DNA from: Escherichia coli | GTDB taxonomy: Bacteria > Pseudomonadota > Gammaproteobacteria > Enterobacterales > Enterobacteriaceae | Length of the DNA: 64,000 bases | Assembly: GCF_024502345.1 (NCBI RefSeq) | Contig: NZ_JALDNN010000001.1 | Strand: one strand, 5' to 3' | Shown here: one piece after another, positions 24,501 through 30,500 of the stretch | How positions within the stretch are numbered: position 1 is the stretch's first letter | Layout: each line of letters opens with the position of its first letter | Position numbers: made by a program

Positions 24501-27500
24501 AACTCTATATTAAGCTATTTAAGTAAACTAATATGAATATTCTTATAATTATTCCTAAGTTATGTAACGGTGGGATTGAAAAAATTGCATCAAACTTTTC
24601 TCAATACTTACCAGAAAGATATAATCAATTTGTATATTCAATCATGTCACAAGACTCTTCTTATGATTTTGCGGTAAAGCCCATTATATTAAATAAAAGT
24701 TTAGGTAAAACCTTTATTGGAAAATTGATTACATTTTTCTACAGGCTTCATTTGGCACGTAAAATTATTAGAGAAAATAACATAGATATATGCATTAGTT
24801 TTGGGGAGAGATGTAATATTATAAATATTCTATCTATGGGGAAAACAAAAAAAATCATTACTATACATAGTCAGCTATCTATTGAAAATAAAACAAAAGG
24901 ATTATATGGGAAAGTTACAACACTATTTTCAAAATTGCTTTATAAAAATGCGGATGCTACTGTAGCCGTATCAGAAATAGTGAAGAAGGATGCGTGCGGT
25001 TTATTAAATTTAGATGCGAATAATGTAGAGCTAATTTATAATGGACACGATATTGATTATATCAAAGATAAGTCTACTGATTATAAAGAATTTGATACAC
25101 CTGTGATCGACTTCGTGTCTGTAGGGCGAATTACATATGCTAAAGGGCATTATCATCTATTGAGAAGTCTTGCCATAGTAAAGGAGACGTATCCTAATGT
25201 AATACTATATATTGTTGGCACGTATGAAAAAGATAATTTAAAAAGCATAATTGATCATTTAATTGAGAAATACGATTTATATGATAATGTGATTTTTACC
25301 GGCTTTAGTGACAATCCATATCCTTACATAAAATCAGCAAAGGCTCTTATACTTAGTTCAATTTTTGAAGGTTTTCCAGGCGTTGTTATCGAGAGTATTG
25401 CGCTTGGAACTCCTGTCATAGCGACAGATTGTGGCGGTGCTTCAGAAGTTTTAAAAAGTCCAGATGCCAAAATAAAGAATAATACGGGAGATGTGGAAAT
25501 TACTAAATTAGGAGTACTGTTACCAAAATTCGATGGGATTTATGATATTAATTTGGATTTTTCGCCCACAGAAAAAAAGATGGCGCAAGTTATGAATGAT
25601 ATTATATCAGGGAAGCTGAAATTTAATGAAGACTTTTTAATTACAAAAGCAAACGAATATGATATAGATTCTATGATGAAAAAATATACGGACTTAATAG
25701 AGAAAATAAAATAATGAAAGAAGCTACTACCTCATATAAATCAATTCATACTATATTAGATTATTTTGGTTGGTCTCATGAAGATTATTGGCATATCAAC
25801 TATAAAGTAAATTATGATTTTTCAAAATTTAATTATTATTGGGATTTGACAAAAAAGTATAATTGGTTTAGTGGACCTTTTGATCAAAATAATATTCCTT
25901 TATATCTTGGCACTGATTCAAAACTGCATTACTCGCCAATTTTTTTAGGGCATTATGCTCTTGGAGCATATCAAGAATATCTATTATCAAATGATAAAAA
26001 AGCATATGACGATTTTATAAGAATAGCGGATTGGTTTGTTGAAAATACAACGACATATAAAAAATGTTCTGGAATATGGATAAATACATACCCAATGTCA
26101 ACTTTTAACTTAAAAGGTAAATGGCAATCGTGTTTAGCCCAGGCAAAAGGTATATCTGTCCTATGTAGAGCTTATTATCTTACGCAAAATTTAAAATATT
26201 TGAAGGTAGCTCTTGACGCATTTGAATCTTTCAAAATATATAAAGAAGAAGGTGGAGTTAAGGTAAGGCATAAAAACGTATTCTTTTGGGAGGAATATCC
26301 AACTATAACCAATTCTATCGTATTGAATGGACATATTTTTGCAGTTTGGGCATTGTACGATTTATCTTTTGTATTAAAAGATAAGAACGAATTTAAGCAA
26401 CAATGGACGGATATTTACAGTTATTATAAAAAATCACTGATTATATTAAAAGAGAATTATAAGTTATGGGATACGCGCTATTGGACTAGATATGATATAT
26501 GGGATAAACATTTTAATGTTTCAAGTTTGTTTTATCATAATCTCCATATTAAACAATTCTATATATTGGCTGTTTTGGGAGATGATGATGATTTCAAGAA
26601 AATTGCTAATAAATGGGCTGGTAAATTAAAAAATCCGCTTTTCAGAATGTATGCGCTTATAAAGAAAGTAGTTTTTAGGTTATGATTATGAATGTTATTG
26701 ATAAAATTATTATGGGTTTGAAAAGTATATATTTAAGCTTTCTTTATACAATATATAATTTATTTCTTAATGAAAATAGATTCGAAGAGACAAATGAAGT
26801 ACATGTTGTTGTAAGTTTGACGTGTTTTCCTGGACGTATAAAAAAAGTATATCTTACTTTGGAGTCAATTATGGCTCAACAATATAATAACTTTAAAGTG
26901 GTATTGTACTTGTCTCATGAAGAGTTTCCAAAGGGTTTAGAGGATTTACCTCGTAGTTTAATACGATTACATAAAAGAGGTGTCGATATTAATTTTACGT
27001 GTGAAAATATTCGATCTTATAAGAAGTTACATTATGCGCTGAGTGATTTCCCGGAACTACCTGTAATAACAGCTGATGATGATGTCTTATATCCCTCGCG
27101 ATGGGTAAATGATTTTATGGAGTCACATAAGCTTTTTCATGATGATATATTATTTGCGAGGGGGCATCAGATAACATTTGACCGAAATGGAAATGTTAAA
27201 AAATATATCTCTTTCGGAAAACCAGCTGGATATTCAGCATCAAGTTTATATATTCCTACAGGAGTAAGTGGAATTCTATATCCGCCAGGATGTTTTTTTC
27301 AAGATGTGCAGAATAAAGATATTTTTATGAAGTTGGCACCTAACGCAGATGATATATGGTATAAAGTAATGACTTTGTTAAACGGTCGAAAATCCAGATT
27401 GATCTATAAAAAGCCAATTCATTATCCACCTATCCTTGGCACACAGAAGATCTCCTTGCGTAAACAAAACTTATCGAAACAACATTTAAATAATGATACA

Positions 27501-30500
27501 CAATTATTAAATTTAATTGATTATTATTCTATCGAATTAGCTGATTTTAAGAAAAAGGAATAGCTCCTATGGAATTAGTTTCAATTATAATGCCTTGTTT
27601 TAATAATGAAGCAACTATAAAAGAAAGTATTAACAGCGTACTATCTCAAAGTTATAAATGCTGGGAGTTAATTATTATCAATGACAACTCAACAGATGAT
27701 TCACAAAATATTATTAACGACTATGTGAATAGTGATGAAAGAATAAAACTGATTACTAATGAAAAAAATATCGGAGCTGGAGGTAGTAGAAATAAAGGAA
27801 TTGAAATTGCAAATGGAAGATTCATTGCTTTTTTAGATGCAGATGATGTTTGGTTGCCAGAAAAACTTGCAAAACAAATAAAGTTTATGAGAGATGGTAA
27901 TTATGCACTGACATATAGTTATTATCAAAAGTTTGATTCAACTGGATTGGGAGCGATCGTCCGGTCACCTGCTACAACAACCTATAGGAAATTGTTATAC
28001 AGTAATGTTATTGGATGTCTAACAGGAATGTATGATACTGATTTTTTGGGTAAATGCTATATGCCTTTAATTCGTAAACGACAAGATATGGGGCTTTGGT
28101 TGTCAATATTGAAAAAGTGTAATAAAGCATATTGCTTACCTGAAGTTTTGGCATATTATAGAATTGACTCAGGAATGACAAAAAATAAACTTGATGCGGC
28201 AAAATATCAGTGGCGATTTTATAGGGACGTAACTAAACTTAATTTGATTCAATCAAGTTGGTATTTTGTTTGGTATTCAGTTTTAGGTTTGGTAAAGTAC
28301 AAAAAATAATAAGGAGGAGTGATGACAATTTTAGTCACTGGTGGTGCTGGATATATTGGCAGTCACACTGTTATTGAATTACAGAAAAATGGTTTTGACG
28401 TGGTAATAGTAGATAATTTTTGTAATTCATCGCCATCGGTTTTAAAAAGAATTGAATTAATTACAGGGAAGGAAATTAAATGTTACGATATTGATCTTCT
28501 GGATTTTAATTCTTTGCAGAAGGTTTTTGTAACTAATAATATTAACTCTGTGATTCATTTTGCATCTTTAAAATCAGTTTCTGAATCACTAATCAAACCA
28601 ACTGAATATTATCATAATAATTTGAGTGGTTGCCTCAATGTCTTGAAAATAATGAAAGAACATAACGTGAATAATTTCATTTTCAGTTCTTCGGCAACTG
28701 TATATGGCAGTAATAACAACAATCCTGTTTCAGAATCTTCATCAGTCGGCACCGCAACAAATCCTTATGGAAAATCCAAGATTTTTTTAGAGCAAATATT
28801 GTCTGATTGCTGTAAATCAAATCCTAATTTAAATGTAACTTGCCTGAGGTATTTCAATCCGGTTGGTGCACATTCTTCAGGTTTGATAGGAGAATCTCCG
28901 AATGGTGTTCCTGCCAATTTAGTTCCATATTTAACTCAGGTTGCTTTAGGTAAATTGCCCGTATTACATATATATGGTAATGACTATGATACCAAGGATG
29001 GGACGGGAGTAAGAGATTTTATTCATGTTACGGATTTAGCTAATGGACACATAGCTGCGCTGAAAAAAATAAATGGTCATAATGGTTTTAAAGTTTATAA
29101 TCTTGGTACTGGGCGAGGTTATAGTGTGTTAGAAGTCGTTAGATGTTTTGAGGCTATTACAGGAAAAAGTATTCCAATCGAATTTTCGCCTCGCAGAGAA
29201 GGTGATATCGCTGAAAGTTGGGCAAATGTTTCCGCAGCAAATTATGAGTTAGAGTGGTTCGCTAAAAAGACATTAACTGATATGTTACGAGATGCATGGA
29301 AATGGCAAACGTTAAATCCAAATGGATTATAAAGATATTTAATTTATATTAAACCTTGCTTATTTAAGATAATGTAAACCGCACCTTTGCGGTAACCCCC
29401 CCTGACAGGAGTAAACAATGTCAAAGCAACAGATCGGCGTCGTCGGTATGGCAGTGATGGGGCGCAACCTTGCGCTCAACATCGAAAGCCGTGGTTATAC
29501 CGTCTCTATTTTCAACCGTTCCCGTGAAAAGACGGAAGAAGTGATTGCCGAAAATCCAGGCAAGAAACTGGTTCCTTACTATACGGTGAAAGAGTTTGTT
29601 GAATCTCTGGAAACGCCTCGTCGCATCCTGTTAATGGTGAAAGCAGGTGCAGGCACGGATGCTGCTATTGATTCTCTCAAGCCATACCTCGATAAAGGCG
29701 ACATCATCATTGATGGTGGTAACACCTTCTTCCAGGACACCATCCGTCGTAACCGTGAGCTTTCTGCAGAAGGCTTTAACTTCATTGGTACCGGTGTCTC
29801 CGGTGGTGAAGAAGGCGCGCTGAAAGGTCCTTCCATTATGCCTGGTGGGCAGAAAGAAGCCTATGAACTGGTTGCGCCGATCCTGACAAAAATCGCCGCA
29901 GTGGCTGAAGACAGCGAACCGTGCGTTACCTATATTGGTGCCGATGGCGCAGGTCACTATGTGAAGATGGTTCACAACGGTATTGAGTACGGCGATATGC
30001 AGCTGATTGCTGAAGCCTATTCTCTGCTTAAAGGTGGTCTGAACCTCACCAACGAAGAACTGGCGCAGACCTTTACCGAGTGGAATAACGGTGAACTGAG
30101 CAGCTACCTGATCGACATTACCAAAGACATCTTCACTAAAAAAGATGAAGACGGTAACTACTTGGTTGATGTGATCCTGGATGAAGCGGCAAACAAAGGT
30201 ACGGGCAAATGGACCAGCCAGAGCGCACTGGATCTCGGCGAACCGCTGTCGCTGATTACCGAGTCTGTGTTTGCACGATACATCTCTTCTCTGAAAGATC
30301 AGCGCGTTGCTGCGTCTAAAGTTCTCTCTGGCCCACAAGCGCAGCTAGCTGGCGACAAGGCTGAGTTCATCGAAAAAGTTCGCCGTGCACTGTATCTGGG
30401 CAAAATCGTTTCTTACGCTCAGGGGTTCTCTCAACTGCGTGCGGCGTCTGAAGAGTACAACTGGGATCTGAACTACGGCGAAATCGCGAAGATTTTCCGT

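Follow-up and report, generated by a model that had tools for sequence, protein, structure and literature searches.

KfiA, the heparosan α-1,4-N-acetylglucosaminyltransferase of Escherichia coli K5, and PmHS2 of Pasteurella multocida are standard tools of chemoenzymatic heparin synthesis. To our knowledge, the characterised enzymes of glycosyltransferase (GT) families GT45 and GT64 (KfiA, PmHS, EXT and EXTL2) use uridine diphosphate (UDP)-N-acetylglucosamine (GlcNAc) or UDP-N-acetylgalactosamine (GalNAc), not UDP-glucuronic acid (GlcA). The GlcA transferases of bacterial glycosaminoglycan synthases, namely KfiC, the N-terminal domain of PmHS and K4CP, belong to GT2. Here we describe a gene at 26682-27563 (+ strand) in a 64,000-nucleotide stretch of E. 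coli DNA (assembly GCF_024502345.1, contig NZ_JALDNN010000001.1; hereafter the window). The description that best suits its product, named "hypothetical protein" in RefSeq, is that of a KfiA-like (GT45-related) enzyme whose partner is the presumed L-iduronic acid (IdoA)-forming epimerase of the O112ab antigen. We hold it very probable that this protein (hereafter the target) serves the O-unit pathway as a GT-A glycosyltransferase, and highly probable that it is a remote homologue of GT45, i.e., of KfiA and the GlcNAc-transferase domain of PmHS.

Fold and family of the target protein

Single-family searches gave no assignment. A Pfam-A scan of the target at E ≤ 1 returned zero families, including PF00535, PF09258 and the models for GT8, GT11, GT25 and GT32 (which we take to be PF01501, PF01531, PF01755 and PF04488/PF05704, respectively). 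The empty scan ruled out GT2, GT8, GT11, GT25 and GT32 as direct assignments, the families that an earlier note on this sequence had suggested. The NCBIfam scan yielded nothing meaningful, and a match to the TsoC selenoprotein model (E = 0.08) was dismissed as noise. Searched as a single sequence against solved structures, the target gave one weak match, in PmHS2 (E = 0.011), which falls in its second, GlcNAc-transferase, domain and includes the segment IT.DDD..YPS. A 76-sequence family profile matched KfiA (PDB 5z8b) at E = 5.4e-9 and PmHS2 residues 294-525 at E = 1.6e-8 (profile positions 32-269), with the GT2 enzyme SpsA behind at E = 0.012. KfiA and this domain of PmHS2 were thus the only significant sequence relatives in the structure database, in keeping with the earlier suggestion of a less common transferase family.

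Profile-profile comparison separated the target from the GT2 proteins of its own cluster. With the full-length kfiA sequence taken via a frameshifted contig and a RefSeq genome, hhalign aligned the target family with KfiA at a probability of 97% (E = 1.1e-10) and with a 39-member KfiA family at 97.4% (E = 1e-11; 181 columns; target residues 42-244 against KfiA residues 2-188). All seven conserved motifs were in register in the latter alignment. Against the two GT2 proteins of the cluster the probability was 3% and 0.2%, which, together with the missing PF00535 match, upholds the earlier view that the protein is without canonical GT2 signatures. The 120 best KfiA homologues were all KfiA-like, with lengths of ~206–258 residues, and none came from the target's family.

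The predicted structure agrees with these alignments. With the family alignment as input, AlphaFold2 gave a model that reached a predicted local distance difference test score (pLDDT) of 95.8 and a predicted template-modelling score (pTM) of 0.93 and has a GT-A layout, with VVVSLT in strand β1 (42-47) and DDD just after the strand at 128-130. Both segments sit where strand β1 and the DxD motif of a GT-A fold are expected. The GT-A-like N-terminal strand and acidic DDD motif first noticed in the sequence are therefore borne out by the model and by Foldseek, and the check by structure prediction confirmed the GT-A fold. No strong match to a non-transferase family was found. Foldseek ranked PmHS2 and KfiA at the top, and the next structural neighbours after GT45 were EXT/EXTL (GT64); the margin of GT45 over GT2 folds was small. 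Weak PF00535 matches were found in 57 of the 76 relatives (best E = 1.6e-9). Because of this small margin and these weak matches, the target family is probably a sister of GT45 rather than a part of it.

Residues that are invariant among 76 relatives, each 26–55% identical to the target, comprise R52, S112-Y113-K114-K115, D132-D133-D134, Y137, G194 and D223-D224. The open reading frame (ORF) call confirmed that the 293-residue product carries both segments quoted earlier, VVSLTCFPGRI as residues 43-53 and ITADDDVLYP as residues 129-138. The features of the protein are as follows.

26694..26765, + strand: N-terminal helix, residues 5-28, from DSSP on the predicted model; moderately hydrophobic and missing from KfiA
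26805..26840, + strand: strand β1 and SLTCFPGR, residues 42-53, with R52 invariant; aligns with KfiA NMSSYPPR (R12 invariant in GT45)
27012..27026, + strand: RSYKK, residues 111-115, with S112, Y113, K114 and K115 invariant; aligns with KfiA KDVGKF (K64 invariant)
27069..27095, + strand: TADDDVLYP, residues 130-138, DxD-type metal/nucleotide-sugar motif; aligns with KfiA LTDDDIIYP and PmHS2 TCDDDIIYP
27159..27167, + strand: RGH, residues 160-162, with R160 at least 90% conserved; H162 aligns with H109 (GIHG), invariant in the KfiA family
27255..27287, + strand: PTGVSGILYPP loop, residues 192-202, with G194 invariant; aligns with KfiA QLGTGT (G143, T144 and G145 invariant)
27345..27359, + strand: ADDIW, residues 222-226, where helix 223-233 starts, with D223 and D224 invariant; aligns with KfiA FVDVRF (D168 invariant)

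Residue by residue, target R52 pairs with KfiA R12, Q66 with Q26, K114-115 with K64, D132-134 with D79-81, Y137 with Y84, P138 with P85, H162 with H109, G194-G197 with G143-G145 and D223-224 with D168. ADDIW is a candidate catalytic or acceptor-side acid. The KfiA alignment starts at target residue 42. Helix 5-28 upstream of it, in which K8 and S15 are conserved within the close subfamily, is in the model a candidate membrane-association helix that may hold the enzyme at the membrane.

The gene within the O112ab cluster

The target is a real gene and not a chance ORF, because it is conserved among E. coli genomes, has homologues and carries invariant motif residues. It occurs in 10 of 5,426 complete E. 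coli genomes at 99.1–100% identity, all 10 with O112ab-type clusters, and its 122 homologues reach E-values as low as 3e-101. RefSeq starts the gene at 26688, six bases 3' of the ATG at 26682 (291 residues, WP_126502564.1), and either ATG is a possible start. With the upstream ATG, the start of the target and the stop of the preceding C5-epimerase gene overlap in ATGA at 26682-26685, an arrangement that suggests translational coupling.

GC content falls to 26–32% between positions 21 and 29 kb of the window, against 44–57% in the flanks. E. coli O112ab:H8 and other genomes whose wzx/wzy are labelled O112ab share the 8.7-kb core of this region at 100% identity. As in a Wzx/Wzy O-antigen cluster, the target lies between galF and gnd and is read in the same direction as wzx, wzy and the other GT genes. 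The genes run gnu, galF, wzx, wzy, GT2, GT4, C5-epimerase, target, GT2, galE/gne, gnd, ugd, wzz and hisI, with the following neighbours.

18522..19517, + strand: gnu, GlcNAc-PP-undecaprenol 4-epimerase, upstream of galF; ORF named from the annotation at this position in the O112ab:H8 reference genome, whose O-antigen cluster is identical to that of the window
19760-20653: galF, 5' flank of the O-antigen cluster
20957-22348, + strand: wzx, O112ab flippase
22362-23546, + strand: wzy, O112ab polymerase (RefSeq start 22368)
23546..24526, + strand: second GT2 glycosyltransferase, 326 residues (PF00535, E = 6.7e-30)
24533..25714, + strand: GT4 glycosyltransferase, 393 residues; best NCBIfam match a PglJ-type α-1,4-GalNAc transferase, below the curated cut-off; a conserved part of the cassette described below
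25714..26685, + strand: D-glucuronyl C5-epimerase-family gene, 323 residues (PF06662, E = 9e-36), overlapping the target start
27569..28309, + strand: GT2 glycosyltransferase, 246 residues, TuaG-like (PF00535, E = 2.6e-39; TuaG model E = 1e-79, below the curated cut-off)
28319..29332, + strand: galE/gne-type UDP-hexose 4-epimerase
29418-30824: gnd, 3' side of the O-antigen cluster
31046..32239, + strand: ugd, UDP-glucose 6-dehydrogenase for UDP-GlcA supply (RefSeq start 31073)

The earlier note had placed the target between two GT2 neighbours. This holds for the downstream gene; the upstream neighbour is the C5-epimerase, and the other GT2 gene lies two genes upstream.

WecA-type initiation is established for E. 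coli O antigens with an N-acetylhexosamine (HexNAc) at the reducing end, and because the O112ab repeat is a pentasaccharide, its assembly should require four transferases. Three recognisable GTs are encoded in the cluster besides the target, which fits as the fourth, unannotated glycosyltransferase of O112ab O-unit assembly. The presence of gnu implies that a GalNAc-PP-undecaprenol primer is available, galE/gne is a possible supplier of UDP-GalNAc, and the TuaG-like GT2 is a candidate β-GlcA transferase. The O112ab repeat is identical to that of Shigella boydii 15 and contains L-IdoA (PMC3068255), a sugar present in no other O antigen of E. coli (PMC7685785). The C5-epimerase, already listed as a candidate prokaryotic epimerase (PMC3068255), is the presumed source of the IdoA.

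Three complete E. coli genomes, one of them NZ_CP142915.1 (strain B19374), carry O112ab-type galF, galE and gnu alleles with a reduced O locus. It consists of galF, a truncated GT2 gene of the 246-residue type (594 nucleotides), galE and gnd (10062-14341 in the B19374 stretch). These strains look like deletions of ~7 kb, from wzx through the target, in an O112ab background and should be rough. Genomes sharing the 3' 22% of the cluster were considered as another serogroup, a view that was rejected as they are O-cluster deletion derivatives. Elsewhere in the window, GC content also dips at 2001-4000, 53001-54000 and 62001-64000 (0.37–0.46 against ~0.50–0.55 around).

Synteny with the C5-epimerase and the wider family

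The closest homologues of the target come from polysaccharide loci in Providencia rettgeri, Vibrio parahaemolyticus, V. crassostreae, Photobacterium kishitanii and two metagenomic contigs. Eight of the nine loci of this clade have a PF06662 C5-epimerase gene directly upstream of the target homologue, at a spacing of −4 to +2 nucleotides. All nine contain a TuaG-like GT2 of ~250 residues, a GT4 gene precedes the epimerase in seven, and ugd is immediately downstream of the target homologue in three (Providencia, Photobacterium and Vibrio sp. 99K-1). The remainder of the clusters varies, with fucosyltransferases, GDP-mannose or perosamine genes, and pyruvyl- and acyltransferases. In one locus (L099) the GT4 gene has been relocated and the epimerase and target homologue are still adjacent. 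A cassette of GT4, epimerase, target, ~250-residue GT2 and ugd is common to the Providencia, Vibrio and Photobacterium polysaccharide loci. From this gene arrangement, the epimerase and transferase appear to be co-translated, and the pair behaves as a mobile two-gene module within the larger cassette.

The locus of Vibrio sp. 99K-1 (GCA_013114585.1, VTXF01000038.1, 937-5882) keeps the GT2-GT4-target-ugd-GT2 cassette intact with no epimerase between GT4 and target. It reads as a natural GlcA-only version, which should make the GlcA form of the same glycan segment, and by analogy with KfiA it fits a transferase able to use GlcA.

A Providencia rettgeri locus (GCA_034304035.1, 2296-11761), flanked by wzi/wza/wzb/wzc, contains wzx, a polymerase-like gene, GT2, GT4, C5-epimerase, target, ugd, GT2 and an epimerase. 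Its gene order was called the same as that of the O112ab cluster, with protein identities of 39–61% and 73% for ugd. This locus may make a closely related IdoA polysaccharide and suggests that the cluster as a whole has passed between genera.

E. coli harbours a second member of the family, a "hypothetical protein" of 287 residues with 45% identity to the target (NZ_CP022279.1, 1746133-1746996), which is also found in strain CI5 and four other genomes. Its cluster reads rmlB-rmlD-rmlA-X-wzy-GT2-wzx-rmlC-GT2, and strain CI5 is O-untypable. The TuaG-like GT2 of this rml-type cluster is 42% identical to that of O112ab, and the paralogue is probably an uncounted transferase of the rml-type O cluster. 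In an unbootstrapped neighbour-joining tree it falls just outside the epimerase-linked clade. We rejected the statement that all homologues of at least 44% identity are epimerase-linked, given this 45% paralogue and the in-clade Vibrio locus without an epimerase. Judged from the compared loci, the epimerase association follows the clade, not an identity cut-off or the whole family.

The family itself is large and has no Pfam model. A HMMER search over 1.84 billion representatives recovered 10,768 clusters (at 50% identity) at E ≤ 1e-3, with 7,607 remaining at E ≤ 1e-10 and 4,538 left at E ≤ 1e-30. Many members are multidomain and some carry two copies of the domain. The fusion partners include N-terminal GT2, GT8, GT41 with TPR repeats, FkbM or class-I methyltransferases, TupA-type ATP-grasp and a Wzx-type flippase (P0172), a range of partners that looks typical of a catalytic glycosyltransferase module. 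Fusions of GT2 with the domain, at ~620–650 residues, have the same layout as PmHS. These proteins could be undescribed bifunctional polymerases. A literature search on GT45 extensions found nothing relevant.

Proposed role, alternatives and known systems

By analogy with KfiA, PmHS and EXT, we favour, with modest confidence, a retaining α-HexNAc transferase that acts on a GlcA or IdoA residue of the lipid-linked O-unit. Its site of action would be the cytoplasmic side of the inner membrane, and its acceptor an undecaprenyl-diphosphate-linked intermediate. The TuaG-like GT2 would first add β-D-GlcA, from the UDP-GlcA made by Ugd, to a HexNAc-PP-undecaprenol primer. The target would then bind UDP-HexNAc (GlcNAc or GalNAc) through its DDD motif and a divalent cation and transfer the HexNAc with retention (α) onto the uronic acid, most likely at O4, as in KfiA, PmHS and EXT. 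Just before or just after this transfer, the adjacent C5-epimerase would turn the glycan-bound GlcA into α-L-IdoA, and the GT4 and the 326-residue GT2 would add the remaining HexNAc residues. As the earlier note held, linkage specificity is not readable from the sequence, and the genomic context narrows it but does not settle it.

Several observations weigh against this assignment. The literature search found no biochemically characterised member of the target's family, and most relatives show the weak PF00535 matches given above. ADDIW resembles the "ED" catalytic-base motif of GT2, which leaves room for an inverting mechanism; the fold and motifs of GT45/GT64 do not separate these retaining families from inverting GT2. 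A set of 83 distant family loci (31–42% identity), found with a 19-sequence alignment in a collection of one genome per species, had no C5-epimerase within 8 kb (0/83) and had ugd in only ~5, and the cluster of the E. coli paralogue has no C5-epimerase. The family at large is thus not tied to epimerases or ugd, and the proposed acceptor specificity is therefore clade-specific and rests on synteny. In addition, the review of Liu et al. (PMC7685785) assumes a UDP-L-IdoA precursor, noting no experimental basis for it; if that route is right, the epimerase is uncoupled from the lipid-linked intermediate.

The same observations bear on an alternative that we consider unlikely, in which the target is an O-unit transferase with no special tie to uronic acid. 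It would add another HexNAc, possibly with inversion (β) like a divergent GT2, and the epimerase would be its neighbour through block inheritance of the cassette. In favour of such an enzyme are the near likeness to GT2 folds, the resemblance of ADDIW to the ED motif and the E. coli paralogue that has no epimerase in its cluster. However, the profile-profile comparison favours GT45 (97%) over the GT2 proteins of the cluster (≤3%), and ugd is immediately downstream in three loci. The −4 to +2 nucleotide adjacency of the epimerase across genera, which survives rearrangement of the cassette, is also tighter than block inheritance needs.

Still less probable is that the target itself is a glucuronosyltransferase, taking UDP-GlcA from Ugd and adding the GlcA that is then epimerised to IdoA. 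The gene does lie between the C5-epimerase and ugd in Providencia and Photobacterium, and between GT4 and ugd in the epimerase-free locus of Vibrio sp. 99K-1, a classic layout of supply, transfer and modification. Yet the donors of GT45 and GT64 known to us are UDP-GlcNAc or UDP-GalNAc, ugd is near few loci of the wider family (~5/83), and the TuaG-like GT2 in all nine clade loci is the natural candidate for GlcA transfer. Retention would, moreover, give α-D-GlcA, which C5 epimerisation converts to β-L-IdoA and not to the α-L-IdoA of known glycosaminoglycans. A target that is no catalytic glycosyltransferase, whether a nucleotidyltransferase or a scaffold or partner that the epimerase needs as KfiC needs KfiA, is very improbable: Foldseek also returned CMP-Kdo synthetase, GlmU and UGPase at E ~1e-6 (the common nucleotide-diphospho-sugar transferase fold), and KfiC activity requires association with KfiA according to the title of a paper cited in PMC3418500, but domain fusions of the catalytic-GT type argue against a purely structural role.

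Returning to the α-HexNAc transferase assignment, a bolder extension of it is conceivable and on balance doubtful. The C5-epimerase and the KfiA-like transferase would form a dedicated module that builds a heparin-like α-HexNAc-(1→4)-L-IdoA unit on the undecaprenyl-diphosphate-linked oligosaccharide, with epimerisation on the lipid-linked glycan and not via UDP-L-IdoA. The target would then be the founding characterisable member of a GT45-sister family. If this were true, the animal EXT and GLCE pair would have a bacterial counterpart that is compact and can be expressed in soluble form.

For the O112ab and S. boydii 15 antigen, assigning the fourth transferase would give a complete parts list for the cluster. 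Tying a KfiA/EXT-type enzyme to a C5-epimerase raises the hypothesis that IdoA is made on the lipid-linked glycan, as in heparan sulfate, as opposed to UDP-IdoA. Chemoenzymatic heparin synthesis could profit from a small bacterial epimerase combined with a single-domain KfiA relative, provided that this relative accepts or needs IdoA. For thousands of family proteins, the E. coli paralogue among them, an annotation as GT45-related GT-A glycosyltransferases could replace the present "hypothetical" or loose "family 2".

Compared with the known systems, KfiA (GT45, PDB 5z8b) is ~20–24% identical to the target over the aligned core and lacks both the ~40-residue N-terminal helical and the ~50-residue C-terminal extensions of the target. 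KfiA extends a polymer together with KfiC in the ABC-transporter (group 2 capsule) pathway, whereas the target, as part of a Wzx/Wzy O-unit pathway, would make a single transfer per repeat, to a lipid-linked oligosaccharide. The C-terminal GlcNAc-transferase domains of P. multocida PmHS1 and PmHS2 (GT45, PDB 8vh7 and 8viw) are ~16–17% identical to the target; PmHS is a bifunctional polymerase, in contrast to the single-domain target. Identity drops to 11–14% with the GlcNAc(GalNAc)-transferase domains of EXT1, EXT2, EXTL2 and EXTL3 (GT64, PF09258), which serve animal heparan sulfate. EXT proteins are eukaryotic Golgi enzymes whose likeness to the target is in fold and pathway logic, and the target has no PF09258 match at E ≤ 1. 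Relative to the ordinary GT2 O-antigen transferases (PF00535, SpsA-like fold), the motif set of the target is that of GT45 and not that of GT2.

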